DNA of 64,000 bases from a virus (taxonomy: Duplodnaviria; Heunggongvirae; Uroviricota; Caudoviricetes). The stretch lies in the IMG/VR virus record IMGVR_UViG_3300035698_027074. The stretch is one strand, 5' to 3'. Shown piece by piece: positions 14,350-43,918 of this stretch. The translations under genes and the position numbers were made by a program. Every line of letters starts with the position of its first letter. The first letter of the stretch is position 1. A model generated the notes under the pieces. The model did not search any database. It had not been told where the DNA came from and saw only the letters and a list, made by a program, of their open reading frames with translations.

Positions 14350-16677
14350 TCATTTTCCTAACCTCTCCAATATTTTTTTAGCAGTTTCTTCATCTACCCG
14401 TGTATAAAGGTCTGGATGAAGTTCAGTCTTATCATCAAATTCCACTTGATATATTTTAACTTGATTATTAAAAAACAATAGGTGGAATTTATCAAGACCT
14501 ATTCCATTATAAAAGAATGTTTTTACAAATACACTTTCTTTTATTTCACCTGGAATATAAGCTACCATTCCCCTTTCTAAATCTAAATAAAGAACACCGT
14601 CTAAATGTGGCATGTGTGTCATTTCTTCCTCTAAACTATACAATTCAACATCAGGAATTCCCTCACCTTCTGTAACTATTGCCATATAGTTGATGATATA
14701 TTGATTCTGGAATACGGGAATATAACTTTCACCTTTCTTCATGAGTGTAAACTTAAGTCCAGAGAAGTCATAAACTATATTTTCATCCTGTTGACTTGCA
14801 GATTGCATCAACCATGGACACCATACCCATTGTTTAGATTCACCAGCTTCACATTGACCAGGAAGTATAACTCCTATGTCTTCTAAATATACTGGTTCGT
14901 GGGAATACCCACCAAAATAGTTCATCCAGACAAATTTCATAACCAAATCATCTGATGATATGAAAAATACCTTATCAACTGGTTCAAATGCTTCTTCAGG
15001 AATATCTGGGAATAGTTCTCTTGATGTTTCTATTTGTTCTGGTGTCATTGAAGTATATTTTCTTATCAATTCTAATGCCTCTGTCTCATTACTTGTTGAC
15101 ATCATTCTTCCCATATCTTGTATTCTTATATTATGTCCATATGGATAACACCATTGGTCACTACAATGTGCCCCATCTGCGTGGACTTTTAATCCTGTTT
15201 CATGTGCCAATATATGACCTGGGTCCCACCAAGTCATTATCAATGAATTGTTTGTTGCGTATGATTCATTTTTCAAATAATCCAAAGCCCATACCCATTC
15301 ATTCGAAATATCAAATCCTCTCATTTCATGTGATTGGGTTGAATACATTATTGATGGATATGTAGAAACCAACAACAAACCAATTACTATGGAAGAATAT
15401 ACTACCTTCGTTTTTTTAACATATTCTATTATATTTCCTACTACCACTCCAGTTGCGATAGCACTTGGAATAGAAAATAAGAGAGTAAACCTCCAACCCC
15501 AGTTCATCATATAAAAAGATGTAAAATACCATAAACCAATAAATAATAATGATATTGTTATTTTTTCCTTCTTGATAAATTTATATGTGAAAAGAGGGAG
15601 TATTAAAGCTCCTAAAATCATTGGATACCCTATCCTTCTGAAAATAGATGTTAATCCCCCTTTAGAGAACAACTTTCCTATAGGTTGTAATTCAGCTACT
15701 GATATGTTGACCATCATCTTCTTACCAACAAACCCTATACTCTCCATCATTGACTCCCAAATATTGATTGTTGGTGTGAATAGATTGAAAAATGTTACTA
15801 TAACTAGTATAGAAACCATAACAATTATAATCGGAAGTATCTCTTTGAATGGGAATTCTATCTTTTTCTTTGGTTGTGATTCTAACATATTCCTATATTC
15901 CCTCATTGCCCTTTTTCTTTCTTTTTTTGACATGTTATCCGTGTCTGGTTTTTTGATTTCTTTTTTCTTACTTACTAAATTCTGTGCAAAAAGGTAGACA
16001 AAATATGACGGGATTATTCCTAAAAGTAAAATGAATATGTACCAAGAAGCTTGCCAAAAATATGTCCATATTAACATGACAAGTGATGCTAAACCAATTG
16101 ACAAATATGTCTTCCATCCCCATTTGTTTTTAAGATATGATTCCAATGTGTTAAGTGTCACCAACACTACACTTACTATAAAGAAAACTACAATACCATC
16201 AGAATCAATATAACCTGCTGGTGAGACACCAATATACGCAGGTGCAAGTACTACGAAAAAAGTTGTTACAAGACCACCATATTTATTGGTTAATTTTGTT
16301 CCCAATATAAATGAAACTACTGCCGTGACTCCAACTACAACAAGATTTGCGTACATCATTGATTTAAAGAATGTAATCGTTGGTATGAACAATTTCATTA
16401 GATAATGAATTAAAATTAATGTATATTCCCAACCCAACTGATAAGGAAATGGTCTTCCAGGTGGTGAGAAACTTTTGAAATCCCATTCTGGTCTCTTAAG
16501 GTCATTATTAAGTATATCCTCAGCGTGTCTTCCATGCCAATGAGGGTCGTAGTCAAGTAATAATGGTGAATCAAAACTTCCTGACCTAGAATAGACTGCT
16601 AAAAAAATAATTCCACTCAAGGTTAACAAAATAAAAAGAAATTCCACCAATGACTTTAATTCTACTTTTATTTTCAT
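14350..16677 (-). CDS. aglB: Archaeal oligosaccharyltransferase AglB (STT3 family), 775 aa, multi-TM
   Basis: WWDPGH (WWDYG-type catalytic motif) in MTWWDPGHILAHETGL; conserved EL1 acidic motif LLDYDPHWHGRHAEDIL; about 13 N-terminal TM helices followed by a soluble C-terminal domain. Confidence 0.8.
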   Translation of the reverse strand: MKIKVELKSLVEFLFILLTLSGIIFLAVYSRSGSFDSPLLLDYDPHWHGRHAEDILNNDLKRPEWDFKSFSPPGRPFPYQLGWEYTLILIHYLMKLFIPTITFFKSMMYANLVVVGVTAVVSFILGTKLTNKYGGLVTTFFVVLAPAYIGVSPAGYIDSDGIVVFFIVSVVLVTLNTLESYLKNKWGWKTYLSIGLASLVMLIWTYFWQASWYIFILLLGIIPSYFVYLFAQNLVSKKKEIKKPDTDNMSKKERKRAMREYRNMLESQPKKKIEFPFKEILPIIIVMVSILVIVTFFNLFTPTINIWESMMESIGFVGKKMMVNISVAELQPIGKLFSKGGLTSIFRRIGYPMILGALILPLFTYKFIKKEKITISLLFIGLWYFTSFYMMNWGWRFTLLFSIPSAIATGVVVGNIIEYVKKTKVVYSSIVIGLLLVSTYPSIMYSTQSHEMRGFDISNEWVWALDYLKNESYATNNSLIMTWWDPGHILAHETGLKVHADGAHCSDQWCYPYGHNIRIQDMGRMMSTSNETEALELIRKYTSMTPEQIETSRELFPDIPEEAFEPVDKVFFISSDDLVMKFVWMNYFGGYSHEPVYLEDIGVILPGQCEAGESKQWVWCPWLMQSASQQDENIVYDFSGLKFTLMKKGESYIPVFQNQYIINYMAIVTEGEGIPDVELYSLEEEMTHMPHLDGVLYLDLERGMVAYIPGEIKESVFVKTFFYNGIGLDKFHLLFFNNQVKIYQVEFDDKTELHPDLYTRVDEETAKKILERLGK

Positions 16678-16678
16678 A

Positions 16679-16957
16679 TCAATCCTTTCCTGTTAGACTT
16701 ATCAACTTAGCCCTACCGACATTCCTGATTTTTATTATTTTTTTAACCTCAAGAATTGCAATGTACTTTGATATTGTTGGTTTTGAATATCCATTTGGTT
16801 TTTTATCTGAAACAAGAATACTCGTAATCTCTGTAATAGTTGGTGGTTCTTTTGTGTCTTCTAAGACCCTGACTATTCCTTTCTCTATTTCGTTCATATC
16901 AACCACTGATTGTTTATTCGGATTCATACGACTCTTCTGTTGTTTCTTCCTTTTCAA
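16679..16957 (-). CDS. Small winged-helix DNA-binding protein (92 aa)
   Basis: HTH-like PTITEITSILVSDKKPNGYSKPTISKYIAILEVKKII. Confidence 0.45.
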   Translation of the reverse strand: MKRKKQQKSRMNPNKQSVVDMNEIEKGIVRVLEDTKEPPTITEITSILVSDKKPNGYSKPTISKYIAILEVKKIIKIRNVGRAKLISLTGKD

Positions 16958-17163: not shown

Positions 17164-17190
17164 TAATATTGCATAAACTTATATTTAAAG
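17164..17190 (-). promoter_or_regulatory. Recurrent promoter-associated motif, site 4 (variant)
   Basis: taatattgcataaacttatatttaaag; about 60-80 nt upstream of the 17102 start codon on the minus strand. Confidence 0.35.
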
Positions 17191-18204
17191 TTTACCACCC
17201 CTTATCATATATTTCATAAATTCAAAAGTTCCTCCAACCAAACCAATCATCCATGCTATGTTTCTTATTAAGAACATCTTATGGTAGAAAAGTACCTCGT
17301 TGAAGTTTCTTTTAATTCTCCATATATCAACAATCCACAAATTCCATGTCAGAAGTAAACCTCCACAAGACATTACTACAAACCCGTTTTTACCCGTCAA
17401 AATTCCGATAATCATTGAAATTAGACTGAAACCAAGAGTAAATAGTTGTAGTATCATATTTGGTTTTGAAATATGGTCACCCCCTGACTTATTTTTATGT
17501 TCCCAATATAATATTGGAACTGTTTTTGCATATTTTTTTTGTTGATTAAAAAATCCCTTCCATGTGGGTCTATGATAATGATATATTATTGCATTTGGGT
17601 TATAAGATATTAATCTTTTTTTATTTTCCGTCACCCTATACCCCATATCTGTATCATAAGCAACTGGTAAATTTTCTCTCCATTTTAAATTTTTCATTAT
17701 ATCTGTCCTTATCAATAAATTCATGGTAGCGGCTCTACTTATGAATTTACCGAAATGTTTATACCTATCTTCAAGTTCTCTCCCTATTAATTCTTGAAGT
17801 TTAGATTCAGGAATTTTAGGGTTTATAGCTATCCCAGCTACTGCAACGACTTCTTGCCCTTCCTCTGGTGGTCTCACATCCAAACCTTTGATAAGTTGTT
17901 TTAACCAATCCTTTTCTACTTCAACATCCCCGTCTGTTATTACAGTATATTCCGAATCTATTTCTTCCATTGCTTTGTTGTATACTGCAGGGACAGTTCC
18001 TACCATTTGGACAACTTTAAAATTCTTTAAACTTCCGTATTTTTTTTTCATAAACTCAAACGTTCCATCTGTGGACATATTATCCACTATTATTGCCTTG
18101 AAATTTGGATAATCTACATCTCTTATAGAGTCTAAACATCTTTCTATTGTTCTCATTGAGTCCTTTACACTCATCAGAACAGTTATTTCTGGATATTCCA
18201 TCAT
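17185..18204 (-). CDS. Family 2 glycosyltransferase (GT-A fold) with C-terminal membrane segments (339 aa)
   Basis: EITVLMSVKD...AIIVDNMSTDGT...VITDGDVEV, i.e. the GT2 DxD-type motifs. Confidence 0.65.
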   Translation of the reverse strand: MMEYPEITVLMSVKDSMRTIERCLDSIRDVDYPNFKAIIVDNMSTDGTFEFMKKKYGSLKNFKVVQMVGTVPAVYNKAMEEIDSEYTVITDGDVEVEKDWLKQLIKGLDVRPPEEGQEVVAVAGIAINPKIPESKLQELIGRELEDRYKHFGKFISRAATMNLLIRTDIMKNLKWRENLPVAYDTDMGYRVTENKKRLISYNPNAIIYHYHRPTWKGFFNQQKKYAKTVPILYWEHKNKSGGDHISKPNMILQLFTLGFSLISMIIGILTGKNGFVVMSCGGLLLTWNLWIVDIWRIKRNFNEVLFYHKMFLIRNIAWMIGLVGGTFEFMKYMIRGGKL

Positions 18205-18210
18205 TTCACC

Positions 18211-18669
18211 TCATCTGAAAACAGCACCTATCACACATCTTATATTATCCTTAGAAATTTTGTATGGGTCTGTTCCTGGATTATTAAAACCTTTTGTTAT
18301 ATACCAATCTCCTTCCTCTTCATAAATCATATGTAATGCGTATGGTGTTATCACATAATCACCTAGATTAATAGTAACATTCTTTGCGTCAAGACACACA
18401 ACCCAATCATTACCACCAATCAATGGAACCATTGACCCTGTCTCTGGTACTTCATAAAATGTTCTTATTGGTAAATCAAATGTTACGTTACATGACCTTC
18501 CCCTACATTCTATTGACTCCAAATGGGAAGATACATCATCATATGGAATATTTTCTCTTCTCCCTAAATCTTTCCACATTAAATATGTCCATGAAGCAAG
18601 AAATCCTGTTATAGATAAAAAAATCACGATGTTTCCAATAACTTTAAGTGTTTTAAACCAATCAACCAC
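18211..18669 (-). CDS. Signal peptidase I, Sec11/archaeal type (S26B), 152 aa
   Basis: N-terminal TM; box B ETGSMVPLI (catalytic Ser), box C GDYVI, His-containing YALHMIY, box E TKGFNNPGTDP. Confidence 0.55.
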   Translation of the reverse strand: MVDWFKTLKVIGNIVIFLSITGFLASWTYLMWKDLGRRENIPYDDVSSHLESIECRGRSCNVTFDLPIRTFYEVPETGSMVPLIGGNDWVVCLDAKNVTINLGDYVITPYALHMIYEEEGDWYITKGFNNPGTDPYKISKDNIRCVIGAVFR

Positions 18670-20116
18670 CGAATAACCTCCTTGTAGTTTTTATGAGTTC
18701 AGACAATTCTTTCAAACTCCTTATTTTTGATATTCTCATCCATAGATATTTTGGTCTCAAATAATATGATTTATAACACCATTTCACCCATTTTTCAAGT
18801 TCTTTATGTGACATATCAGGAAAATCAACTATAGATTCTTTATATGTGTCAACGGGCTCAAAATCATGTGATTTTGTGGCAAACCAATTGTTTTTTTGGA
18901 TTATTTTATAAAACTCTGTCTGTGGGTGTGGAATGACAACAGCAAAACTAACCCAATCAATCTCCAACATTTTAAGGACTTCCATATTCCATTTTATGGT
19001 TTCTTCAGTTTCAAGTGGGCTTGCACCAAGAAGTATATTAACTTTTGGTTCTATCCCAATTCTTTTCAGATTTAAAACTGCCGTGAATATATCCCCAACT
19101 TTTGTATTCTTCTTGGTGTAGTTTAGTATTTCTTGAGTAAAACTTTCAATTCCTATATCAACCCATTTAAATCCTGCACGTTTCAACCATTCACATGTTT
19201 CTATATCAGTCAATGTGTCTGCACGTAACAAACATCCCATTTCCAAATCCAATGGTTCAAGTAGTTTACATATCTCTATTGTTCTCTCTTTTCCGTTTAC
19301 AAAATTATCATCAATGAATGCTATTGAATTATAACCTTCTTCCTTTAACATTTTCACTTCTTCATATATGTTTTGTGGACTTCTTAATGACATCTGTGGT
19401 TTACACCCAAAATGTTTTTTATGTTCTATTTCCCTTGAGAATGTAAAGGATGATGGTATACAAAAAATACATTGTCCATAACAATTCCTACTCGCCATAA
19501 CTACAGTACTTGGTTTTTTTCTCAATTTAAAATTATAATATTTTCCTTTGTATTTATTTATTAGATGTCTTGATGGGAATGGTAACCTGTCTATATCAAA
19601 ATCTAATTTTCTTGGTGGATTACTTTTTGGATAATCTTTACCCATGTATGTTATCCCCATTATAGTTTTCAATTCTTTGAAGTTGTTACCCATTAATTCA
19701 ACTATCGTATCTTCTGGTTCACCCCTTACAACAAACGTATCTCTATCTGTTACAAAATCACTTGGTCTTCCAGTAGGTTCTGGTCCTAGAAATATTATCT
19801 TTACATTTTCTTTGATTTCCCTGATTTTATCTCTCCAGTATTTATCTAATTTTTCTGACAAGAAAACAGTATAGAAAATATAAACATCAGAGTTGTCTTC
19901 TTTTATAAATTCAATAAAATCTTTTGATTTTCTATCCGTGACTATAAAATCTTCAATAACAACTTCATGCCCCTCTTTTTCTAACATAGCAGCAGGATAG
20001 AGTATGAAAACTGGTTCTGAAAAATATAACCCGAAGTTGCAGCCGTACAAACGCTCGGGAGCTCTCCCATTATTTATTTCATCTATTGCTGGTGGTATTA
20101 AAAATGTTACTTTCAT
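18662..20116 (-). CDS. Cobalamin-binding (class B) radical SAM enzyme, 484 aa
   Basis: N-terminal B12-binding-like Rossmann segment (MKVTFLIPPAID...); radical SAM CxxxCxxC in SRNCYGQCIFCIPSS; C-terminal HKFY..RP..Y motif shared with the five paralogs. Confidence 0.7.
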   Translation of the reverse strand: MKVTFLIPPAIDEINNGRAPERLYGCNFGLYFSEPVFILYPAAMLEKEGHEVVIEDFIVTDRKSKDFIEFIKEDNSDVYIFYTVFLSEKLDKYWRDKIREIKENVKIIFLGPEPTGRPSDFVTDRDTFVVRGEPEDTIVELMGNNFKELKTIMGITYMGKDYPKSNPPRKLDFDIDRLPFPSRHLINKYKGKYYNFKLRKKPSTVVMASRNCYGQCIFCIPSSFTFSREIEHKKHFGCKPQMSLRSPQNIYEEVKMLKEEGYNSIAFIDDNFVNGKERTIEICKLLEPLDLEMGCLLRADTLTDIETCEWLKRAGFKWVDIGIESFTQEILNYTKKNTKVGDIFTAVLNLKRIGIEPKVNILLGASPLETEETIKWNMEVLKMLEIDWVSFAVVIPHPQTEFYKIIQKNNWFATKSHDFEPVDTYKESIVDFPDMSHKELEKWVKWCYKSYYLRPKYLWMRISKIRSLKELSELIKTTRRLFGG

Positions 20117-20400
20117 CTCAATCCCTCCGAATCATTAATGAAAAATTTCTTCAATCCTTTTTTTCCTAGATAAATTAAAAATCCTACAAAAAATACTAGA
20201 AATGCTAGTAAACCAAATATTAACCTAGAAGTCCTAATTCTCAATACAAATTGGGGAAGTGGAAGGAAAATCCAATTTGGCATAATTACCACCATGAAAA
20301 TATACGCACCCAAGAACATCAATAAAATACCAATGAATTTCTTGACTTCAAATTTATTCATTTCAACCCCTCCACAATTTCTTTTGCACTCAACATACAT
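20113..20400 (-). CDS. Small membrane protein (95 aa)
   Basis: Three hydrophobic helices. Confidence 0.4.
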   Translation of the reverse strand: MYVECKRNCGGVEMNKFEVKKFIGILLMFLGAYIFMVVIMPNWIFLPLPQFVLRIRTSRLIFGLLAFLVFFVGFLIYLGKKGLKKFFINDSEGLR

Positions 20401-21641
20401 TTGTCTATGTTGATATATTCAAAATAACCAAACCTTCCAGCCAATATCAACCCCTTTCTTTGATAATAACTTCTTATCTTTTCAATGTTTTTGTAATAAA
20501 AATTATCTGGAACAATGTAGGCAAATTTATTCTTTTTTAATTTTGTAAACATTATATCCTTTTCTTTGATTATTCCATTCTTGACCAAAATATTTACTGC
20601 TCTCTTCTCAACATTTTTTGGTTTCTTGTCTCTGAATGTTATTTCAGTAGTTATCATTCCCCTTCCTTTTGGAACATTATGAGGACTGTAATTGGCAGGA
20701 AAACTTGCTCTTGTTATGAAATCACCAAAATTAATCCAAGATACCCTTTTCATTGTAGGTTTCTTTAGAGCAATTAAAATTGTATATAGTGAATTCACCT
20801 TTAATTTCCCTATCTTTTCTTCTATGTCTTTACTTGTACCAATTACCGATGGTAAAAGAGGTAATGGTATTGTTGAAATCAGTTTATCAAATTTATAATA
20901 GTCTTTGTCTGTCTTAACTACCCACTTATTTCCTTTTTTTCTTATTTCAGTTACTTTTTCATTAAATATATATTCTCCAAAATCACAGACTTCAGAAAAT
21001 AATCCATCTGCAATTGTCTGACTTCCACCTTCCTTTGGATAATAAAATGTCGCTTGTGCCTTAAGACCAGTCACTTCCATGTCCAACGTAGATTTAATCA
21101 TTTCGTCTATTGTTGGTTGAGGTATTCTCTCTACTAATTTTACACTCAATTCCTTTGGGTCAATATTCCACCAAGTTCTATTGACTGGAATAAGATATTT
21201 ATCTGATAATGATTTACCAAAATACTGATAGAACCACTCCACAACGTTTTTTGGTTCTCTAAATTGGCCCTTCATCATTTTAGCTTCTATGAAATCCCTT
21301 AAGAATTCAAATCTATCCTCCTTATTCAATTTTCCTATTCCACTTTCAAATGGATATTTAATTATTTTTCCCTTATAAAAATTCTTTGCATACCTTGTCC
21401 TTTTGTAAAGATTCTCTTTCCCCATAACTTTGACAAAAATATCAAGGATGTCCTTATATTTAGACCAGAGTAAATGTTCACCACCTGTGTTGAATGTGAA
21501 TCCTTCTACAAAATCAGTGTTCATCAGTTCACCACCAGGTTTGTCTCTTTTTTCAATTACAGTAAATTCATGTTTGGTATCTTTCATAAAATAAGCCAAA
21601 CCTAAACCAGTTATTCCTGCTCCTATTATTCCTATTTTCAT
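20358..21641 (-). CDS. FAD-dependent oxidoreductase, UDP-galactopyranose mutase-like (427 aa)
   Basis: N-terminal GxGxxG (MKIGIIGAGITGLGLAY, EKRDKPGG). C-terminal GLILAGRFGYFEYINIDKCM resembles Glf GGRLAEYKYYDMHQV. Internal YLIPVNRTWWNIDPKEL resembles Glf YTEKQWG..ELP. Confidence 0.5.
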   Translation of the reverse strand: MKIGIIGAGITGLGLAYFMKDTKHEFTVIEKRDKPGGELMNTDFVEGFTFNTGGEHLLWSKYKDILDIFVKVMGKENLYKRTRYAKNFYKGKIIKYPFESGIGKLNKEDRFEFLRDFIEAKMMKGQFREPKNVVEWFYQYFGKSLSDKYLIPVNRTWWNIDPKELSVKLVERIPQPTIDEMIKSTLDMEVTGLKAQATFYYPKEGGSQTIADGLFSEVCDFGEYIFNEKVTEIRKKGNKWVVKTDKDYYKFDKLISTIPLPLLPSVIGTSKDIEEKIGKLKVNSLYTILIALKKPTMKRVSWINFGDFITRASFPANYSPHNVPKGRGMITTEITFRDKKPKNVEKRAVNILVKNGIIKEKDIMFTKLKKNKFAYIVPDNFYYKNIEKIRSYYQRKGLILAGRFGYFEYINIDKCMLSAKEIVEGLK

Positions 21642-29695: not shown

Positions 29696-29697
29696 TG

Positions 29698-35065: not shown

Positions 35066-35697
35066 TATTTATCATCTTTTCTTTTAAATAACATTACCCA
35101 AAAACCATTCAAACATGTTGTCTCAAAATCAAATAAAATAAAATTATTTTTCTTGAACGATTCTGTAAATTCGTCAAATTCATAGTCTTGTTCTGGTGGT
35201 CCTTTTTCTGGAGTAAATTTGTAATATAAATCTGCTAATTTTCTGAACAAGGAATCCTTGTTTGGTTGAACTAGAAGGACATATTTATCACTTATCCTAC
35301 ACATCTCATCCACGTAAGGTTGAAGGTTTGACTTATTAAAATGTTCTATCAATCCTTCAGAATGTATCAAACCGATTTCCCTGTCTTCAAAATTAGTGTC
35401 AAATGCATCCATACAATAGACCTTCAATCCCAATTTTTTACTACAGTGTTGGGCTGATGTTTCTGAAGTGTCTATACCGACTATATCCTTAAATCCCATT
35501 TCTTTATACCATAACATAGACCTCCCTGTTCCACATCCAATATCAACCATCTTCAAATCTCTTGGTATATTTTTTAGAATTTTTTTCATACTTCTCTTAA
35601 CAATCCCCAAAAAAAATCTAGCTAAGAAACTCAACTTCATTTCTGGGAAATCTTTCCATGTCTTTTCCCACTCCTCTATTACTTCTTTTCTATCCAT
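35065..35697 (-). CDS. Class I SAM-dependent methyltransferase, 210 aa
   Basis: MVDIGCGTGRS (motif I); LIHSEGLIEH. Confidence 0.6.
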   Translation of the reverse strand: MDRKEVIEEWEKTWKDFPEMKLSFLARFFLGIVKRSMKKILKNIPRDLKMVDIGCGTGRSMLWYKEMGFKDIVGIDTSETSAQHCSKKLGLKVYCMDAFDTNFEDREIGLIHSEGLIEHFNKSNLQPYVDEMCRISDKYVLLVQPNKDSLFRKLADLYYKFTPEKGPPEQDYEFDEFTESFKKNNFILFDFETTCLNGFWVMLFKRKDDK

Positions 35698-35701: not shown

Positions 35702-37141
35702 TCACCCCGTTACATAAAAAAATGCTCTTGCCATTTCCTTAATTTCTTTCCATGACCTTATTCTCGTCAATCTTTTCAGAATATATTTTGGTCTCATATA
35801 AAATTTTTTATGAACATACCTCAATGCTTTCATTAAATCTACATTACTCATCTCATCTGTCCTTATTACAGCCTCTTCAGCTAATCCATATGCGTCATAA
35901 CCACCAAAATTATAATCCCTAATAAGGTAACCATTTTCTTTAAAAAAATCATATAATTTTGTTCCTGGGTATGGTGTTGTCAATACAAATTGACAGAATT
36001 CTGGTTCTAATTCAAGAGCAAATTGTAATGTATTTTCAACTGTTTCCCATGTCTCACCTGGTAATCCTATCATAAATGACCCTGAAGCATGTATTCCAGA
36101 CTTTTTTGTCAGTTCAAACGTTTTTCTGATGTCATCAATTTTTATACCTTTGTTGACAATATCCAATAACTTTTGGTTTCCTGACTCCACCCCAAAAAGA
36201 ATATTCCAACAACCAGATTTTTTCATCACTTTTAACATTTCCTCATCTAGTGTATCAACACGACTATTACATGACCATGAAACCTTTATTTTTCTTTCAA
36301 TAATTCCATTGCATACTTCTATTACTCTTTTCTTGTTTACTGTAAACGTCTCGTCAAATATGTAAATTTCTTTGATTCCATATTTGTTCACTAGAAGTTC
36401 TATTTCATCAAGTATATTTTCTGATGACCTAGAATACCATCCTTTCCCAGAACCTCTCCATACAGTAGAACCACCAACAATACAAAAATCACATTTATAT
36501 GGGCATCCCCTACTTGAAATTAATGTCATAAATGGAAACTTTTTTGCAAAAGTGATTGAATTATATTTTTTAATTGATAATAAATCATATGCAGGAAATG
36601 GTAGGTCATCTAAATTTTTGAATGGTTCTGTTGGTGGGGTACTTATTATCTCCTTGTCTTTTCTGTAACTGATTCCAGTAACCCATTCCAAATCTCCATT
36701 ATTTTCCAAAACATTTAATAATTTTTCCAGTGTTTTTTCTGACTCACCACGAATCAAAATATCAATATCCATGAATGTCTCTAATGTTCTCTCTGGTAGG
36801 ATTGGTGCTATGTGAGCATCATCAAGAATTGTTATAATTTTTTTGTTGACTCTCTTCGCTACCGTAGCTGTCTGTGCATCAAAAGACATTGTAGATGGTG
36901 AAGATTTAAACAGAACTATGTCTGGACTGAACTCCTCAATTATCTTTTCTATATCAATCCATTTCAAATCAAGAGCATTTGCATCTAAAAGTTTTATATC
37001 AACCTTGTCCCTCAGATAAGACGCAATGTAAGCTAAATCTATTGGTGGATATATTGAAACTGGGGAAGTTCCAGCACATCTTATCTCTCTGACTACGGGT
37101 ATTCCGTGAAATCTTGGGGGGTTAATTAACATCAACTTCAT
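35702..37141 (-). CDS. Cobalamin-binding (class B) radical SAM enzyme, 479 aa (tandem array member 2)
   Basis: SSRGCPYKCDFCIVGG; N-terminal MKLMLINPPRF...; C-terminal HKKFYMRPKYI. Confidence 0.7.
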   Translation of the reverse strand: MKLMLINPPRFHGIPVVREIRCAGTSPVSIYPPIDLAYIASYLRDKVDIKLLDANALDLKWIDIEKIIEEFSPDIVLFKSSPSTMSFDAQTATVAKRVNKKIITILDDAHIAPILPERTLETFMDIDILIRGESEKTLEKLLNVLENNGDLEWVTGISYRKDKEIISTPPTEPFKNLDDLPFPAYDLLSIKKYNSITFAKKFPFMTLISSRGCPYKCDFCIVGGSTVWRGSGKGWYSRSSENILDEIELLVNKYGIKEIYIFDETFTVNKKRVIEVCNGIIERKIKVSWSCNSRVDTLDEEMLKVMKKSGCWNILFGVESGNQKLLDIVNKGIKIDDIRKTFELTKKSGIHASGSFMIGLPGETWETVENTLQFALELEPEFCQFVLTTPYPGTKLYDFFKENGYLIRDYNFGGYDAYGLAEEAVIRTDEMSNVDLMKALRYVHKKFYMRPKYILKRLTRIRSWKEIKEMARAFFYVTG

Positions 37142-38757
37142 TTTTTATCACCCACCGACTTCAATAATGATAAGGCACTCTTTATGTTTTCCTTGAATTC
37201 TGAAAATGACCTTATTGAAAAGAATTTTCTCATTATATATTTTGGTCTAAAATAGAACTCTTTATATGCAGTTTTTACTGCTTCTTCCAAGTCTTCTGGT
37301 GTTAAATTGTCATATTTGACAACTGCTTTATTTGTAGCACTATAGAAGTCCGACCAATCATCTACAAACAACTTCACCAACCACCCGTTATCAACACACA
37401 TATTATAGAATTCAGTACCAGGATATGGCATACATATAGGAAATTGTGCTGTATCTGGATTTAATTCTTTTGCAAAATCAATTGTTTGTCTTATTGTTTC
37501 TTTTGTTTCCCCTGGTGCTCCAAACATGAATGTAGCATGAATCCTTATCCCAACCTTCTTTGTATTCTTTATTGTTTCTCTTATTTGTTTAAGAGTTATA
37601 CCTTTTTTCATATTATTTAATATTTTTTGACTTCCTGATTCTACCCCATAAACAATCATGTCACACCCTGACTTCTTCATTCTTTCCAACATCTCTAAAT
37701 CAATTGAATTCACTCTGGATAATGTTCCCCATCTGATTTTCTTATGGATTCCTTTCTCAATCATTAGGTCACAAATATCTAGAACACGTTGCTTGTCAAT
37801 TGTGAATGTGTCATCGTCTATGTAAATATATTTTACTTTATAGTCATCAAGAAGGAATTCCATCTCTTTTATTACATTTTTCGGACTCCTAGCACGGAAT
37901 TGTCTATTGAACAGAACTTGATTCCATACACAAAAAATACATCTACCATAACACCCACGTGACGATAACATTCTAACAAATGGTGTTCTTGTTGTGTTTG
38001 TTTCACGATATTTTCTCATTGGAAGATGGTGTCTTGCAGGAAATGGTAGGTCATCCAAGTTTTGGATTAGTTCTCTGGGTTGTGTTATAATAACTTTTCC
38101 GTCTTTTTTAAATCCTATTCCCTTAACCTTTTCTAGATTATCCAAATTATTAACAACATCCCTTACAGTGTAATCAAATTCACCTATAGCAACCACATCA
38201 ACTGGATATTTTTCCAACAATTCTTTGGGAAAAACCGATGGGTGTGTTCCGACCATCATTAATTTTGAACCATATCTCTTGACTATATCAAATATTTTTT
38301 TGTCATTATCAAATGATGGTGTAGAAGTTTCTATAATTATTAAATCTGGTCTCTGGATTTGGACATATTTCTCAAAACCATCCCAACCTCCCCCTTCAGC
38401 TAAAAAATCACCTAACTTCACTTCTACATTAGTATCCCTTTCAAGGACTGCTGTCGCATAAGCTAATAATAATGGTTCTGAATATGTCCCTGAAACTGAT
38501 TTAGAACTCCATCTACTAAATCTGTTGAATCCTTCTTCCCATGGTAAATTTGCCAATAATACTTTCATTCTCTTTGTTTTCTTGAACATATGATTTTTCT
38601 TGAAATAGTCCTGTGACTCTTTAGATATTCCCAAATCTTTCATCTCTCCCATTGTTGTTCCCTGAATTCCTTCATTTTCTTGAATAGTTAAATCCCATTC
38701 ATTTGTAGTAAATGATAACAATTCTTTTAGAATTTTATTTTCTTTATTAACATCCAT
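37138..38757 (-). CDS. Cobalamin-binding (class B) radical SAM enzyme, 539 aa (tandem array member 3), with an N-terminal extension
   Basis: SSRGCYGRCIFCVWNQ; KEFYFRPKYIM. Confidence 0.7.
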   Translation of the reverse strand: MDVNKENKILKELLSFTTNEWDLTIQENEGIQGTTMGEMKDLGISKESQDYFKKNHMFKKTKRMKVLLANLPWEEGFNRFSRWSSKSVSGTYSEPLLLAYATAVLERDTNVEVKLGDFLAEGGGWDGFEKYVQIQRPDLIIIETSTPSFDNDKKIFDIVKRYGSKLMMVGTHPSVFPKELLEKYPVDVVAIGEFDYTVRDVVNNLDNLEKVKGIGFKKDGKVIITQPRELIQNLDDLPFPARHHLPMRKYRETNTTRTPFVRMLSSRGCYGRCIFCVWNQVLFNRQFRARSPKNVIKEMEFLLDDYKVKYIYIDDDTFTIDKQRVLDICDLMIEKGIHKKIRWGTLSRVNSIDLEMLERMKKSGCDMIVYGVESGSQKILNNMKKGITLKQIRETIKNTKKVGIRIHATFMFGAPGETKETIRQTIDFAKELNPDTAQFPICMPYPGTEFYNMCVDNGWLVKLFVDDWSDFYSATNKAVVKYDNLTPEDLEEAVKTAYKEFYFRPKYIMRKFFSIRSFSEFKENIKSALSLLKSVGDKK

Positions 38758-40194
38758 CTAATTAACCTCCTTTCTGTCTTTCCCACTCTGGGTATGAAAT
38801 ATCGCTTTAAGAAATGCAATACCAGCGTTTGTCATCATTTTAAATTGTCTCCAATTTCTGATACTTATTGCTCGTTTAATTATATATTTTGGTCTCATAT
38901 AAAATTCTTTATGTGCTTTTGCATAAAATTCTTCCACCACTTCTGGATTTGGAACATCTGGGTGTGTGAACATAAATTTTCCTGATGTGTGCTGAATGTT
39001 TTCCCAACTGTTAGTATCAAAAAGGAATTTTCCATCTTTTTTAATCATTTCATACATTCTCGTCCCTGGATATGGTGTTGCCATATTGAACAATGCAACA
39101 TCAACATCTAATTCTTTTGCAAAATCAATTGTTTGTCTCATGGAATATATCGTATCACCAAATAAACCAAACATAAAAAATCCCGATATGATTTGTATTT
39201 TTGCTTCCTTAGCACATTTTACTGCGTTTCTTGACATATCTAAAGTAATTGATTTAGGTATTTTATTTAAAACCTCTTGATTACCAGACTCAAACCCAAA
39301 AGCTACATAATCACAACCAGCTTTCTTCATTTTAACCATAAACTCTTTTGTTACCCCATTTACCCTTATTCCATTAGTTGTTCTGATGTGAATCTTAAGA
39401 CCAGAATCAATAATCAAATCCAACATTTTTTCAGCCCTTTTCATGTCCATATTAAAATTATCATCATAAATTGCAATTTCTTTTACACCATATTCATTAA
39501 CCAAAAATTTAATCTCTTTGAAAACATTTTCTGGTGTTCTTGCTCTGAATTTATATCCGAATATTTTTTTACAACAAAAATTACAGTCAAAAGGACAACC
39601 ACGTGAAGTAAATATACATGCCCATGGGGTATATTGAGTTCCTGCTGAGATATATGGTTTATCAACACCATTACTTTCTAGTAGATGTCTTGATGGGAAT
39701 GGAATTTTATTTGGGTCAAGTGGTTCTCTAGATGGATTATGAAATATTTTCTCATTCTTCTTATAAGATATTCCTTTTATTTTTTCCAATGATTTTCCTT
39801 GAACTATTTCTAAAAATGTATACTCACCTTCAGCCCTGACAACAATATCAAATCCTTGTCTTAAAATATCATCTGGTAATGCAGTAGGGTGTGGACCACC
39901 ACAAACTTTGAGAACATTATCTGGAAGTAAATTGATAAAATCAGTACTCCATTTTTGAGCTGGACTTAATATACTAACTCCAATAATATTATAATCTTTT
40001 GCATATTCTAAAGTCTGTTCTGGTGACAGATTTTTGAGATTAGCATCAAAAATTTTAGGTTTAAAACCATTTTCTTCAAGAACTGATGCTATATAACACA
40101 AACCTATTGGTGGATTGAGCATCCATGCACCAGACTTTCTTGCTTCTGCATAATTTGGTTGGACCAATAATATTTTTTTATTCATCCTTATCAA
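38758..40194 (-). CDS. Cobalamin-binding (class B) radical SAM enzyme, 478 aa (tandem array member 4)
   Basis: TSRGCPFDCNFCCKK; MIRMNKKILLVQPNY...; HKEFYMRPKYI. Confidence 0.7.
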   Translation of the reverse strand: MIRMNKKILLVQPNYAEARKSGAWMLNPPIGLCYIASVLEENGFKPKIFDANLKNLSPEQTLEYAKDYNIIGVSILSPAQKWSTDFINLLPDNVLKVCGGPHPTALPDDILRQGFDIVVRAEGEYTFLEIVQGKSLEKIKGISYKKNEKIFHNPSREPLDPNKIPFPSRHLLESNGVDKPYISAGTQYTPWACIFTSRGCPFDCNFCCKKIFGYKFRARTPENVFKEIKFLVNEYGVKEIAIYDDNFNMDMKRAEKMLDLIIDSGLKIHIRTTNGIRVNGVTKEFMVKMKKAGCDYVAFGFESGNQEVLNKIPKSITLDMSRNAVKCAKEAKIQIISGFFMFGLFGDTIYSMRQTIDFAKELDVDVALFNMATPYPGTRMYEMIKKDGKFLFDTNSWENIQHTSGKFMFTHPDVPNPEVVEEFYAKAHKEFYMRPKYIIKRAISIRNWRQFKMMTNAGIAFLKAIFHTQSGKDRKEVN

Positions 40195-40582
40195 CTCTCT
40201 TTATATAAGTAGTATTCCATGGGTCATGAAATACCCTATCTGAAATTGTCTTTAAACTTCCTCTATGATAATCTGGTTTCATCTTTCCCTGAACAATATA
40301 GTTATCATATGCAGAAACATTATTTTCAAACATGTGGCTATAAGATGGAGCGTCTATTAAAAAGACGTGAATAAATAATCCTATTCCAAAAAATAAAATA
40401 AAATATCTTATGAAATCATGTTGAAGGAACTTAATATTACTAGAGAAATATGCTAAAATCATCCCTATTGATGCCATTAAAAACCACATAAAATGGTGTA
40501 CAAATATCATTTTTCCTTCCCTCCTGTGAATATAAAAAATCCTATTGCAAAGAATGTAATAAAAAATACTGTACCTAACCAA
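40178..40582 (-). CDS. Small membrane protein (134 aa)
   Basis: Three TM helices. Confidence 0.4.
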   Translation of the reverse strand: MVRYSIFYYILCNRIFYIHRREGKMIFVHHFMWFLMASIGMILAYFSSNIKFLQHDFIRYFILFFGIGLFIHVFLIDAPSYSHMFENNVSAYDNYIVQGKMKPDYHRGSLKTISDRVFHDPWNTTYIKRVDKDE

Positions 40583-40688: not shown

Positions 40689-41708
40689 TCATTTTATCAC
40701 ACCAAATTGATTTTTTCTTATATTTTTCTCAGTTATTTCAAAATATTTGTTTTTCAATGATTTTTTTAATAATTTAGAAACAGAATTTATACTCACATTA
40801 TATAATTTTGAAATTTCTTTGAGTGTTGTTCCATTTAAATATTTTTTTTTCACATTGTCTCTCTTATTTTTCATTCTTATTTGGGGTGTATTATTCATCA
40901 AATTAATAACATCAAAATCAATCAAACAACATCTTGGTTTCTTTCCATGTAATAAACACCACACTATCCTCTCTTTGATACCCATTATTTTTGATATTTT
41001 TCTCCTCCCAAATCCAAAATTAATTCTATAATATTTTATTTTTTCATAATCTTTTTTACTTATGATTTTTAAAGGATTTATTTCTAGATATTTATTTATT
41101 TTATACTGTTTTCTTTTAATTGTAAAACCTATTTTTTCATTAAATTTTTTAAGATTTCTAACATTTGATATATTTAAATTAAATACGATATTGTTTTTAA
41201 CTGTCCTTCTCTTTACTGTTAATATTTTTGATTCGATTCCTATTTTGTTTAAAAGTTCCCATATTTGAAACAATCCATTTCTATTAATACTTTGAATACT
41301 AATAGTACAACCAGAAAAACTACCTTCTGAATCAACATAACCTTTTAAAAAATTACAAATAATATTTTCATTTTTAGAATTCATTATTTCTCTAGGAACA
41401 GCCCATGATTTTGTTCTGAATAACCCAAATTTTTTTTCTATATAATTTATTAAAATGATGGAATTAATCCCAGTATAAAAAATCCCTTTACTTTCAAAAA
41501 AGAATGACTTACCAAACTTTTTTTTGACTTCATTCTTAAATTTAAGAACAAACTCTTTATCCTTTGCAGATAAACGGATTTTACCAGATTTTTGATATTT
41601 TGAAATAGACCCATCACCACATAAAGTACCCAAAATGTATGAAAAGGAATTTGTAATATCCATCCTATTTAGATTCATTGTTTTATTTCTCATTCTTCTC
41701 CACCACAT
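40689..41708 (-). CDS. LAGLIDADG homing endonuclease-family protein (two motifs) with a C-terminal HTH domain, free-standing, 339 aa
   Basis: YILGTLCGDGSI and FLKGYVDSEGSF (two LAGLIDADG-type motifs); C-terminal TLKEISKLYNVSINSVSKLLKK helix-turn-helix. Confidence 0.6.
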   Translation of the reverse strand: MWWRRMRNKTMNLNRMDITNSFSYILGTLCGDGSISKYQKSGKIRLSAKDKEFVLKFKNEVKKKFGKSFFFESKGIFYTGINSIILINYIEKKFGLFRTKSWAVPREIMNSKNENIICNFLKGYVDSEGSFSGCTISIQSINRNGLFQIWELLNKIGIESKILTVKRRTVKNNIVFNLNISNVRNLKKFNEKIGFTIKRKQYKINKYLEINPLKIISKKDYEKIKYYRINFGFGRRKISKIMGIKERIVWCLLHGKKPRCCLIDFDVINLMNNTPQIRMKNKRDNVKKKYLNGTTLKEISKLYNVSINSVSKLLKKSLKNKYFEITEKNIRKNQFGVIK

Positions 41709-41834: not shown

Positions 41835-42089
41835 TCACCCCATTACCCTCTCCAAAACTAATGCCAATGCAAGTAAAAAAAATAATAGACCCATATACAA
41901 CCATGCCTCTCTTTTCCTAAACCATTTTGATATTTTTTCCAGACCACCACTCTTTTCATTGATTGTTATAAGTATCATTAATCCTATTATCCATTTCCAA
42001 AGTCCCCAGTTGTAGTCAATACAGAACTGTCTGAGTAACCACCCTATTATTATTGACAATATAACAGTTACTTCATAAAATTGAACCAA
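41835..42089 (-). CDS. Small membrane protein (84 aa)
   Basis: Two or three TM helices. Confidence 0.35.
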   Translation of the reverse strand: MVQFYEVTVILSIIIGWLLRQFCIDYNWGLWKWIIGLMILITINEKSGGLEKISKWFRKREAWLYMGLLFFLLALALVLERVMG

Positions 42090-42093
42090 TATA

Positions 42094-42909
42094 TCACCTT
42101 GACAACCTCTGTGTTAATATTATCTTTGTTAAACACAACGTAACTCCTATTGCATTCATTACACCATCAATTGTTTTAGTCCCTGTCCTTAGATATGGTG
42201 TTTTTATGTCAACGTATTTGACGTTATATCCTCTTCTCGTCACCTTGTCTTTAACTCTACCTGCGATTACATTCATTTCTCCTTCTATAGCATATCTTCT
42301 ACTACTGGAAAATCTCAGGACATCCTTAAGAAATGAAACAGTGAATGCACGAAAACCAGATTCACTATCAATGACATTAAAACCAGATATTACTCTTCCC
42401 CATATATTTAAAAACTTGTTACCAAACTTCTTATAATCTGGGTAGTCTGATGTATCTCTTGCCCCGACCACAAGGTCGACAACCTCTTCTTCATTTTCCA
42501 TTGCTTCAATAAGTTTAGGCAAATCTTCTGGGTTGTGTTGACCATCTGAATCCATCGTAATAATAATATCATTATTTAGTTCTGAAATATTCCTATTACA
42601 CAATAACCACCAAAAGGCGTATCTTAGTGTTGCTCCCTTACCTAAATTAATAGGATTAGAAATAACATCATTTGCACCACTGGATTTGGATATTAAACTA
42701 GTTGTATCTGTTGAACCATCGTCAAAAACACATATGTTCGCATATGGTAATACATGTCTACATCCCTTTATAACATCACTAATCGTTTTTTCTTCATTTT
42801 TAGCAGGGATTACAATAAAAATCCTCTGTTTTCTTCCATACAAATCTTTTTTCATTTGTTCATCAAAATCTTTTTGATTCATTAATTCACACCTCCAGTT
42901 ACAAACCAA
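42094..42909 (-). CDS. GT2 polyprenyl/dolichyl-phosphate sugar synthase (DPM1/ArnC/AglD-like), 271 aa
   Basis: IVIPAKNEEKTISDVI...VFDDGSTDTT...IITMDSDGQHNPEDL (GT2 DPM-synthase-type motifs). Confidence 0.7.
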   Translation of the reverse strand: MVCNWRCELMNQKDFDEQMKKDLYGRKQRIFIVIPAKNEEKTISDVIKGCRHVLPYANICVFDDGSTDTTSLISKSSGANDVISNPINLGKGATLRYAFWWLLCNRNISELNNDIIITMDSDGQHNPEDLPKLIEAMENEEEVVDLVVGARDTSDYPDYKKFGNKFLNIWGRVISGFNVIDSESGFRAFTVSFLKDVLRFSSSRRYAIEGEMNVIAGRVKDKVTRRGYNVKYVDIKTPYLRTGTKTIDGVMNAIGVTLCLTKIILTQRLSR

Positions 42910-43292
42910 ACTCCTATAAATGTAATAATCATTCCAAAAGTTGAGAACCCAAGACCCATTAATTGAGAAGATGTTAGAACCTCATTAAGAATTTTTGTAT
43001 TGAGGTACATATTTATCAATAAAATTGGGATTCCCATTCCCATGAAAGCAACAATGACCTTACTTGCGTCTGTTAGAGAAAATGCCCACATTGTTACTCC
43101 CCACATCACAAAATTCAATGATAAAATCAAAATTGCATGGGGGTTTGTTAGTAATTTAAACCAAGTATCAAAACTCAAGAAACTCTTTAATGTTATCTCT
43201 CCAAAACTTGTCATTATGTATTTCTTTGATATATTAATGAAAATATTCACTAAACTCACCAACACAACTAATCCCCATACCAATAATCTCAC
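42882..43292 (-). CDS. Small 4-TM membrane protein (136 aa), candidate ArnE/F- or GtrA-like flippase partner of the adjacent GT2
   Basis: Four hydrophobic helices; overlaps the GT2 gene. Function is inferred from context only. Confidence 0.35.
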   Translation of the reverse strand: MRLLVWGLVVLVSLVNIFINISKKYIMTSFGEITLKSFLSFDTWFKLLTNPHAILILSLNFVMWGVTMWAFSLTDASKVIVAFMGMGIPILLINMYLNTKILNEVLTSSQLMGLGFSTFGMIITFIGVWFVTGGVN

Positions 43293-43918
43293 TTCTTATC
43301 ACCTTCTAATAATATTACTGTTTTAGTGTTTCCCATCCATTTGACCTTGACTTTTCCTTCTTTTTCTAAAATATCAACATATTTTGAAACTGTTGCAGAA
43401 CATATAGTTGATTTCTTTGCAATTTTATTAATCCATGTAAATTTTCCCAAATCACGTATTGTATCCAAAATATGTTCTTTTACAAGGCCATGAGACCCAG
43501 AACTTTTTCTGTATTTTGCCCATTTTCCCCCATTATTATAAAGAGGATTAAGTTTATTTATCAATTTTTTTTCTGACTCCAATATTTCTTTCCAATCTTT
43601 ATCATTTTCATTTTTCATTTTAATATAAGAAAAATATTTTACCTCATCAAAATGTAAACTGTTGCTTTTATGACCTTCTCTAATTCTTTTACCTATATTT
43701 GAACTGGCACCAATATATAATGGTTCCTTTCTTTCATTAAATAATATATATAAACCAGAAATTTTGAAAAGTTTTTCTATATCCTCTATTTCTATCATAT
43801 CAGAGTTTTCTTTTTTAATAAGTTCTGATATAACATCTGCTAACCTTTTCTTATTCATATCTATTTTAATTTTTGAAAGTTTACTCCAGTCACCATCATA
43901 AACCTTAACATTCTTCAT
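43289..43918 (-). CDS. GIY-YIG nuclease-family protein with a C-terminal winged-helix domain, 209 aa
   Basis: ISGLYILFNERKEPLYIGASSNIGKRIREGH...NKLNPLYN (GIY...YIG...R...E...N); C-terminal CSATVSKYVDILEKEGKV. Confidence 0.55.
   Translation of the reverse strand: MKNVKVYDGDWSKLSKIKIDMNKKRLADVISELIKKENSDMIEIEDIEKLFKISGLYILFNERKEPLYIGASSNIGKRIREGHKSNSLHFDEVKYFSYIKMKNENDKDWKEILESEKKLINKLNPLYNNGGKWAKYRKSSGSHGLVKEHILDTIRDLGKFTWINKIAKKSTICSATVSKYVDILEKEGKVKVKWMGNTKTVILLEGDKK

Follow-up and report, generated by a model that had tools for sequence, protein, structure and literature searches.

The region 14350-43918 of IMG/VR virus record IMGVR_UViG_3300035698_027074, which was analysed as a window of 64,000 nucleotides, is a real surface-sugar gene island of 30 kb. 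It is probably a cell-surface glycoconjugate locus of variable content from a tiny, uncultured DPANN archaeon akin to the Aenigmatarchaeota, and is built round a conserved cassette of radical S-adenosylmethionine (SAM) enzymes, methyltransferases and glycosyltransferases (GTs). All of the protein families in the island are known – what is new is the arrangement, a set of several paralogous, HpnJ-like radical SAM enzymes (rSAMs) within a three-component/GT-C locus, common to DPANN archaea, Methanoperedens and bacteria of the candidate phyla radiation (CPR). No description of this cassette was found in the searchable literature.

A conserved core shared by archaea and bacteria

Gene order was compared with that in an Aenigmatarchaeota metagenome-assembled genome (MAG; L002/L007), in the loci L004, L006, L090 and L091, and in eleven JGI metagenome loci (L092-L102). 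Such a synteny search had been proposed in an earlier note on this DNA, made from its letters alone, and it found the core order of the island in independent archaeal contigs. The core runs 4-TM protein – DPM1-like GT2 – s84 – s134 – rSAM A – B – C – MT210 – D and continues (MT219/GTC428) – P-loop kinase – PMT_2 – E – GT2a. These genes, and the remaining rSAM and glycosyl-transfer genes of the island, are as follows.

42882-43292, minus strand: 4-TM protein, 136 aa, four transmembrane segments; overlaps the gene for the DPM1-like GT2
42094-42909, minus strand: DPM1-like, polyprenyl-phosphate GT2, one C-terminal transmembrane segment (PF00535, E 5.1e-19)
41835-42089, minus strand: s84, 84 aa, two transmembrane segments; directly after the DPM1-like GT2
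40178-40582, minus strand: s134, 134 aa, two transmembrane segments, no family; travels with the cassette
38758-40194, minus strand: rSAM A, 478 aa, B12 domain and CX3CX2C (PF04055 88.1 bits, PF02310 58.9 bits)
37138-38757, minus strand: rSAM B, 539 aa as an open reading frame (ORF) (HpnJ model 336.3 bits, E 3e-100)
35702-37141, minus strand: rSAM C, 479 aa, B12 domain and CX3CX2C (PF04055 109.9 bits, PF02310 49.7 bits)
35065-35697, minus strand: MT210, class I SAM methyltransferase (PF13649, E 4.4e-13)
33641-35065, minus strand: rSAM D, 474 aa (PF04055 44.7 bits; PF02310 17.7 bits, sub-threshold)
32161-33447, minus strand: GTC428, GT-C-fold glycosyltransferase, 428 aa, no Pfam match; invariant D30 in the first outer loop
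31515-32174, minus strand: MT219, class I SAM methyltransferase (PF08241, E 1.3e-20)
28379-29449, minus strand: P-loop kinase of PEPCK/HprK fold, 356 aa; G152-K153-T154, H130 and D170 conserved
26778-28202, minus strand: PMT_2/ArnT-type GT-C, 474 aa, 11 transmembrane segments, GEDE loop (PF13231, E 8.2e-8)
25238-26305, minus strand: GT4 (PF00534, E 4.7e-28)
23219-24634, minus strand: rSAM F, 471 aa, B12 domain and CX3CX2C (PF04055 83.3 bits, PF02310 60.8 bits)
18662-20116, minus strand: rSAM E, 484 aa, B12 domain and CX3CX2C (PF04055 56.7 bits, PF02310 40.9 bits)
17185-18204, minus strand: GT2a, membrane-anchored GT2, two C-terminal transmembrane segments (PF00535, E 5.3e-15; PF13641)
14350-16677, minus strand: AglB/STT3 oligosaccharyltransferase, 775 aa, at least 9 transmembrane segments (PF02516, E 5.6e-15)

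The core order is repeated in at least 8 independent Aenigmatarchaeota-like contigs, and GTC428 is followed by the PMT_2-type GT-C in 13 of the 14 loci of sufficient length. Within the island, conservation is highest in rSAMs A, B and C (60-72% identity, versus 34-54% for their neighbours). The richness in rSAMs, which the earlier note had singled out as unusual, is a conserved, selected feature across the relatives. Other genes are exchanged from locus to locus. L002 additionally has an NDP-sugar epimerase/dehydratase and Wzx; L090 has a carbamoyltransferase and a flavoprotein of the type found in the window; and L091 has a GmhA/HddA/GmhB/HddC-like (GDP-heptose-type) set, a DegT aminotransferase, a SPASM rSAM and an S-layer gene. 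These swapped sugar-tailoring genes make this a hypervariable surface-glycan locus round a fixed core. In L091, the SPASM-type rSAM lies in the region 3602-9994 with SIS, GHMP-kinase, HAD-phosphatase, nucleotidyltransferase and DegT genes.

The cassette is found in both domains and is independent of AglB, because orthologs of its genes sit in loci of Methanoperedens, Gribaldobacteria and Chloroflexia. In Methanoperedens (L088), orthologs of A, B and C and of the 210-aa methyltransferase (43-53% identity) have GT2 genes and a Wzx flippase as neighbours. A contig of the CPR lineage Gribaldobacteria (L089) carries the same four orthologs, also at 43-53%, beside genes for GT2, PMT_2 and LPG_synthase_TM. 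The Chloroflexia locus (L087) has a B-type rSAM between GT2/GT4 genes and YfhO plus PMT_2.

Of the 8000 candidates scored for rSAM B, 3273 were homologues at E<=1e-20. A scan of GTDB species representatives with an 8-sequence alignment gave only one close match (66% identity, from Aenigmatarchaeota). The others, at 34-43% identity, came from Chloroflexota, Iainarchaeota, Omnitrophota, Brocadiales, Saccharibacteria, Nitrospirae, Geobacter and other groups. Fifteen of the 79 GTDB loci (L008-L086) have at least three rSAMs, and 12 of these 15 have a GT2 and 8 a PMT_2-like gene. Loci with multiple rSAMs usually hold methyltransferase and GT4 genes as well as GT2 and PMT_2-like ones.

The nearest named relatives are MAGs of Candidatus Aenigmatarchaeota (64% identity for rSAM B, P0011; 43% for the 428-aa GT-C, P0129). 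An archaeal source fits the presence of AglB, PCNA, an S_layer_C protein and long tRNAs that probably contain introns.

The earlier note had named a chimeric assembly of unrelated contigs as one thing that would overturn its reading. No sign of a chimera was found, and the possibility was rejected on three grounds: base composition is uniform across the window, a 4-kb contig from a separate ENA assembly is an exact match (it carries rSAM B, plus A and C at 100% identity), and the gene order recurs in relatives. The profile hidden Markov model (HMM) check that the note had also proposed confirmed nearly all of its gene calls.

Radical SAM enzymes, transferases and small membrane proteins

Where the earlier note had read six class B radical SAM paralogs, six rSAMs are present, one of them with a degenerate B12 domain. 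All six pass PF04055, and five have the CX3CX2C motif (CX4CX2C in D). The gathering score of the B12-binding model PF02310 (32.1) is passed by the same number, five of the six, at 40.9-60.8 bits, and rSAM D scores 17.7 bits. HpnJ is the best curated model for five of the six. The cutoff of its equivalog model, TIGR03471, is 577.6 bits and is not reached by any of them – the best score is 336.3 (rSAM B), and the others score 113-277. The hopanoid context of HpnJ (shc, hpnH/I/K) is absent among the ORFs of the window and from the related loci.

Pairwise identity among the six paralogs is 24-39%, and on this ground a recent tandem duplication was rejected. The paralogs are old, and each therefore probably has its own step. 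A repeat search found a single DNA-level repeat, the C-terminal motif FY.RPKY...IRS shared by the rSAMs.

rSAM A is HpnJ-like, with 60-66% identity to its orthologs and 51-52% in L088 and L089. The homologues of rSAM B are mostly ca. 473 aa long and align from an internal Met (MKVLLANLP). Its 64-aa N-terminal extension is retained in the two closest homologues only, and the internal Met may be the true start. The best match of rSAM B in the PDB is AprD4 (E 3.6e-23), followed by QCMT and OxsB. rSAM C is HpnJ/BchE-like (HpnJ, 277 bits) and has 61-72% identity to its orthologs (53% in Methanoperedens). In rSAM D, the cluster motif is the CX4CX2C variant CYWGNCTFC and the B12 domain is degenerate; the HpnJ model scores 208.6 bits, and the motif CYW[GS][KN]C[TS]FC is kept in the orthologs (L002/L007, L006). 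rSAM E (HpnJ model, 180.7 bits) has orthologs at 47-52% identity in L002 and L004. rSAM F is accessory and specific to the window – it is BchE/MJ_1487-like (BchE model, 159 bits), with ca. 30% identity at most to the rSAMs of relatives.

The closest characterised relatives of these enzymes, HpnJ by profile and AprD4 by structure, act on sugar rings. HpnJ converts bacteriohopanetetrol (BHT)-glucosamine to a cyclitol ether, and both HpnJ and the calditol synthase Cds have been assigned, from knock-outs, a ring contraction of a lipid-bound sugar (PMC13459092). AprD4 is a diol-dehydratase acting on an aminoglycoside sugar (PMC12931638). The earlier note had expected a glycan heavily C-methylated or otherwise radical-modified; C-methylation is only one of several chemistries that fit HpnJ/AprD4/BchE-like enzymes.

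The GT2 at 42094-42909 resembles synthases of polyprenyl-phosphate sugars. Its best PDB matches are the Pyrococcus Dol-P-Man synthase 5mlz (E 8e-10) and ArnC (E 2e-9), and its best NCBIfam models are AglJ (76.7 bits) and PpgS (75.3 bits). GT2a is a conserved partner of rSAM E, with orthologs at 43-45% identity in L002 and L004. The second GT2 and the GT4 of the earlier note are both present by their PF00535 and PF00534 matches; the GT4 has an ortholog at 41% identity in L004. Both GT-C enzymes that it listed were recovered too, the PMT_2-type protein at 26778-28202 (orthologs at 38-45% identity) and GTC428 at 32161-33447. A PDB sequence search with the 428-aa protein gave no match, and its fold was resolved by structure prediction and a fold search, which returned a GT87-like GT-C fold. 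The GTC428 family is very small: 14 members were found in a set of 5.8 billion proteins.

Both class I SAM methyltransferases of the earlier note have Pfam matches (PF08241, PF13649). Orthologs of MT219 have 45-47% identity in L002 and L006, and those of MT210 have 45-54%. The 210-aa methyltransferase is at the equivalent position beside the rSAM triad in L088 and L089.

The P-loop kinase, called HprK-like in the earlier note, indeed has a PEPCK/HprK fold and a Walker-A loop. Its AF2 model (pLDDT 92.5) matched ATP-dependent PEPCK (E 1.6e-8, TM-score 0.60) and HprK/P (E 2e-5) in Foldseek. A PDB sequence search with the 356-aa protein gave no match and a word-indexed search only one weak match. 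Its family was gathered by an exhaustive HMMER search. Of the 64 homologues, 58 match TIGR04352, HprK-related kinase A (best E 2e-11), 20 match PF07475 (best E 2e-6), and 8 match ScmC. The window protein itself is above threshold in no curated HprK-family model and matches only FomB (E 0.004). G152-K153-T154 is invariant or nearly so among the homologues. Orthologs are found in L002 and L006, and one family member is fused to a GT4.

Three small membrane proteins accompany the DPM1-like GT2 in the core. Orthologs of the 4-TM protein have 35-54% identity and those of s134 have 30-40% (both in L004 and L006), and s84 has 72% identity to its L006 ortholog. Pfam gave nothing usable at E<=10 for these three proteins, nor for the signal-peptidase-like and pilin-like proteins described below, and no match to a GtrA or ArnE/F model was found among the small transmembrane proteins of the window. 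The combination proposed in the earlier note for a surface glycoconjugate island, an ArnC-like synthase, a small membrane protein and a GT-C, was borne out by the DPM1/ArnC-like GT2, the adjoining 4-TM gene and the GT-C genes. By position and topology only, the 4-TM protein is a candidate flippase for a lipid-linked sugar. s84 together with the GT2, which has a single transmembrane segment, may be a split form of the C-terminal domain with multiple transmembrane segments of archaeal Dol-P-Man synthases, or s84 may be a DPM2/3-like subunit.

Proposed pathway and its alternatives

In three-component systems, a polyprenyl-phosphate sugar synthase, a small protein with multiple transmembrane segments and a GT-C carry out glycosylation outside the membrane. 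We consider it reasonably likely that the island encodes extracytoplasmic glycosylation of this (ArnC/ArnT-like) type, with the sugar radical-tailored before transfer by GT-C. On the cytoplasmic face, the DPM1/ArnC/AglJ-like GT2 (42094-42909) would load a sugar derived from a nucleotide sugar onto polyprenyl (dolichyl) phosphate, with s84, s134 and the 4-TM protein working alongside it. Tailoring would follow on the lipid-linked sugar, or take place just earlier, at the nucleotide-sugar stage. The candidate tailoring enzymes are rSAMs A-E with the accessory F, the two class I methyltransferases and the PEPCK/HprK-fold kinase, and possible reactions include radical C-H chemistry (C-methylation, deoxygenation, ring contraction), O-methylation and phosphorylation. 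The rSAMs would have to act before flipping because they need cytoplasmic SAM and reductant. The 4-TM protein would then flip the tailored product, and outside the membrane the GT-C pair (PMT_2-type, 26778-28202; GT87-like, 32161-33447) would transfer it to secreted or S-layer proteins (O-linked) or to another glycan. In parallel, GT2a, GT4 and AglB would make and transfer a conventional lipid-linked glycan. The families and folds, the synteny and the conservation across domains of the rSAM triad with MT210 and with GT2 or GT-C genes are shown by the data; we infer the substrate of the rSAMs, the types of reaction, the use of cobalamin, the role of the flippase, the acceptors and the order of the steps.

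A bolder version is offered tentatively. A, B and C (with D and E in Aenigmatarchaeota) would act sequentially on a polyprenyl-phosphate hexose to give a sugar new to surface glycans, for example a carbocyclic (cyclitol/calditol-like) or a multiply C-alkylated one. The GT-C pair would transfer it to lipids or to surface proteins, such as those of the S-layer, in DPANN archaea, CPR bacteria and Methanoperedens. If true, the glycoconjugates would form a new class, made by a pathway that is horizontally shared across domains.

Several points weigh against the three-component pathway. The 4-TM protein has no HMM match even at E 10 and belongs to no flippase family. No Wzx/AglR-type flippase was found among the island ORFs (no Polysacc_synt match), and the relative L002 has a Wzx. 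No rSAM attains the cutoff of any equivalog model, so that the reaction could be of several types, and the substrate may be a nucleotide sugar, a lipid or a protein instead of a lipid-linked sugar. Cobalamin synthesis is not known from DPANN archaea. Some rSAMs with a B12 domain make no use of cobalamin, an example being AprD4, which does not bind it (PMC12931638).

Gene arrangement in the island weighs the same way, in that it is not one operon. The earlier note had described a single uninterrupted minus-strand array with many 4-nt overlaps. All 32 ORFs of at least 84 aa in 14350-43918 are indeed on the minus strand; exact 4-nt overlaps are found at only 4 junctions, and there are ca. 10 intergenic gaps of more than 100 bp. 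For these two reasons the island likely comprises several transcription units. Minus-strand bias extends beyond the island over nearly the whole window, and therefore co-directionality cannot delimit the island. About a third of the ORFs, ca. 10, are not conserved in relatives. They comprise the two homing-endonuclease-like genes, the genes for the stomatin, rSAM F and the ASCH protein, and several ORFs of unknown function, of 92, 97, 116, 118, 142 and 161 aa.

Candidate acceptors are encoded on both sides of the island.

48865-51105, minus strand: S-layer protein with signal peptide, 746 aa, possible acceptor, 5 kb upstream (PF05124, E 1.3e-18)
11071-14247, minus strand: five small secreted or membrane proteins with signal peptides or pilin-like N-termini (by hydropathy; no Pfam match), candidate acceptors

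The S-layer protein has no N-X-S/T sequon, versus 3.8 expected (zero was reached in 1.5% of shuffles), and its homologue in L091 (16579-18741, 26% identity) also has none, versus 2.5 expected. This suggests sequon avoidance, or O-linked instead of N-linked glycosylation, in the lineage. Any decoration of an S-layer protein without sequons would therefore not be a canonical AglB N-linkage, and the PMT-like GT-C enzymes are candidates for it. Transfer by AglB to the neighbouring S-layer protein, as proposed in the earlier note, is unlikely with zero sequons in both proteins.

In that note the island was centred on AglB. The gene itself was correctly read – PF02516 scores 56.2 bits versus a cutoff of 24.5 over residues 15-431, and the WWDPGH motif is present in the translation (MTWWDPGH), with a sub-cutoff match to TIGR04154, archaeo_STT3 (E 9.5e-10). 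An account that we think unlikely would have rSAM-modified sugars enter a dolichol-linked N-glycan that AglB transfers to S-layer or pilin-like proteins, with the GT-C enzymes only decorating. In the window the array ends with AglB, the cassettes of L004 and L098 likewise have STT3 beside them, and two of the small secreted proteins just downstream of AglB (12093-12785 and 11071-11841) have 4 sequons each. Against this, no STT3 turned up at distances of up to 10 kb from the cassette in L090, L091, L097 and L101, the cassette is also found in bacteria that lack AglB, the S-layer proteins have no sequons, and among the transferases it is the GT-C pair that is invariant. AglB often neighbours the cassette but is not its centre – the invariant unit consists of the rSAMs, the methyltransferases, the GT-C pair and the GT2. 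An AglB-centred N-glycan version is possible for part of the island.

Remodelling of lipid head groups is about as unlikely, though plausible. Here GT2a or GT4 would glycosylate a (host-derived) lipid, HpnJ/Cds-like rSAMs would convert the sugar to a cyclitol- or calditol-like head group, and the product would be a glycolipid. The preference of five of the six rSAMs for the HpnJ model fits this account, as does the ring contraction of lipid-bound sugars assigned to both HpnJ and Cds (PMC13459092). rSAM E adjoins or nearly adjoins GT2a in the window, L002, L090, L092 and L098, L089 has an LPG_synthase_TM gene, and DPANN archaea are thought to take lipids from their hosts (PMC11868695). However, the conserved DPM1/ArnC-like GT2 and the two GT-C enzymes point to polyprenyl-phosphate donors used outside the membrane, no locus table contains lipid-synthesis genes, S-layer and nucleotide-sugar pathway genes lie inside related islands, and GT2a has no match to the HpnI model.

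It is quite improbable that the rSAMs and the HprK-like kinase modify a peptide made by the ribosome and altered after translation (RiPP) or surface proteins, by RiPP-like C-methylation or phosphorylation, with the glycosyltransferases as bystanders or adding a final sugar. HprK-type kinases phosphorylate some lasso-peptide precursors. The rSAMs have secondary matches to ApyD (up to 175 bits) and rSAM_ocin_1, the matches of 8 of the 64 kinase-family members are to the SynChlorMet cassette protein ScmC, and the island has many small ORFs. The conserved ones among these (s84, s134 and the 4-TM protein) are membrane proteins, unlike leader-core peptides, and the soluble ones are not conserved. 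No RRE/PqqD or SPASM domain and no precursor peptide was found in the island, HpnJ scores exceed those of RiPP models in five of the six rSAMs, and the partners across phyla are GT2, GT4, GT-C and methyltransferase genes. Chance adjacency of unrelated genes in a strongly strand-biased stretch of genome, with the window-wide bias, the unconserved third of the ORFs and the ca. 10 gaps in its favour, is hardly credible and is largely refuted by synteny, with the core order in more than 8 independent contigs, partly across domains.

Other genes, known systems and significance

The remaining genes of the island are listed here.

43289-43918, minus strand: GIY-YIG nuclease with winged helix (PF01541, E 2.6e-8; MarR, E 2.6e-4)
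40689-41708, minus strand: free-standing LAGLIDADG homing-endonuclease-like ORF with C-terminal helix-turn-helix (PF14528, E 4.6e-16)
30508-31452, minus strand: SPFH/stomatin-like (PF01145, E 2.3e-36)
29698-30495, minus strand: two soluble ORFs, 118 and 116 aa, specific to the window; no family, no match in relatives
26302-26661, minus strand: 119-aa protein with three transmembrane segments by hydropathy (DUF5658 only, E 0.01)
24616-25268, minus strand: ASCH-domain protein (119 aa; PF04266, E 8.9e-6) and a 97-aa ORF; weak ASCH gene in L091
22000-23097, minus strand: two soluble ORFs, 161 and 142 aa, specific to the window; no Pfam, no match in relatives
20358-21641, minus strand: FAD/NAD(P) flavoprotein of the amine-oxidase superfamily, accessory (PF01593, E 1.8e-13)
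20113-20400, minus strand: 95-aa protein with two transmembrane segments by hydropathy; no family
18211-18669, minus strand: 152-aa N-terminally anchored protein, possible S26B (Sec11-type) signal peptidase paralog
16679-16957, minus strand: 92-aa basic protein, possible winged helix (faint DUF7343, E 0.027); weak match to one L004 ORF

Two calls of the earlier note stood in part. Its UGM-like flavoprotein is an amine-oxidase-type flavoprotein (PRK07208-type, 126 bits) with weak similarity to the N-terminal part of UGM (39.8 bits versus a cutoff of 304); a similar gene follows GT2a in L090. The Sec11 signal peptidase has S26-like boxes by eye (GSMVP / LGDYV / LHMIY / KGFNNPGTD) and an L004 ortholog at 32% identity, and its score to TIGR02228 (E 7.3e-4, 19.4 bits) is below the cutoff of 51.85, with no Pfam match. 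The stomatin was read correctly (PF01145); it is missing at this place in relatives and lies outside the conserved core. A second SPFH/stomatin gene lies just outside the island (44995-45888, plus strand), and L006 has a Band_7 gene upstream of the cassette. The 92-aa basic protein is not conserved in most relatives.

The GIY-YIG and LAGLIDADG genes were missing from the earlier note's list. The LAGLIDADG ORF is inserted between the conserved s84 and s134 and is missing at this spot in L004 and L006. The GIY-YIG gene, which lies at the island's upstream edge and shares 4 nt with the 4-TM gene, is unconserved in relatives; its product, with a MarR-like winged helix-turn-helix, could be a regulator or another mobile endonuclease. 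An Rfam scan found tRNAs only, none of them inside the island. Elsewhere in the window, Rfam called three tRNAs beyond the ARAGORN set (2026-2179, 6999-7104 and 7185-7274), 90-154 nt long and probably intron-containing, as is usual in archaea. In the region 52000-64000, very small ORFs are densely packed on the minus strand, and several of them have CxxC pairs that resemble zinc ribbons. This stretch adjoins the PCNA gene (52189-52941) and may represent a viral remnant or an integrated element.

Several known systems resemble parts of the island. Like ArnC-ArnE/F-ArnT, GtrA-GtrB-GtrC, CsbB-GtcA-YfhO and the mycobacterial PpgS/DPA system, it has a DPM1/ArnC-like GT2, a small neighbour with multiple transmembrane segments and a GT-C. 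There are precedents for tailoring of the lipid-linked sugar, ArnD and DprE1/E2. Unlike those systems, the island has 4-6 rSAMs, two methyltransferases and a PEPCK/HprK-fold kinase between synthase and transferases, it pairs two different GT-C enzymes, and its small membrane proteins match no GtrA or ArnE/F model. In the HpnI-HpnK-HpnJ and Cds systems, as here, an rSAM with a B12 domain is encoded beside a GT2, and theirs is assigned the rearrangement of a lipid-attached hexose. The island differs in its scores (at most 336 versus 577.6 bits), in having no hopanoid or tetraether genes, in having multiple distinct paralogs rather than one, and in GT-C enzymes that imply a polyprenyl-phosphate donor and not a membrane-lipid end product. 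AprD4, GenK and GenD1 are likewise rSAMs with an N-terminal Rossmann domain, and they deoxygenate or C-methylate sugar rings; their substrates are soluble pseudo-oligosaccharides of actinomycete secondary-metabolite clusters, whereas the context here is one of membrane-linked surface glycans, in DPANN, CPR and methanotrophic archaea.

Archaeal Agl clusters also have AglB, an AglJ-like Dol-P-hexose synthase, soluble glycosyltransferases and a class I methyltransferase in one neighbourhood. Unlike in those clusters, AglB is dispensable for the cassette and the window has no Wzx/AglR-type flippase; the searchable literature yielded no example of an Agl cluster that includes rSAMs. The window kinase shares its fold and P-loop with HprK-related kinases A and B (TIGR04352/TIGR04355), FomB and PEPCK, but is above threshold in none of their models.

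The cells of DPANN archaea and CPR bacteria are attached to those of hosts, and the chemistry of their surfaces has hardly been studied. The recurrence of the core across archaea and bacteria points to an undescribed cell-surface sugar chemistry. Here six large iron-sulfur enzymes are retained within a surface-glycan locus by an organism whose genome is very small, and three of these rSAMs travel with a methyltransferase, a GT2 and a GT-C as a unit between Archaea and Bacteria. Radical SAM enzymology gains a defined group of HpnJ-like enzymes, as yet uncharacterised, that can be put to the test on a likely class of substrate, and glycobiology gains a candidate route to unusual sugars. Since there are enrichment cultures of Methanoperedens, which has the triad, the prediction is open to testing in them.

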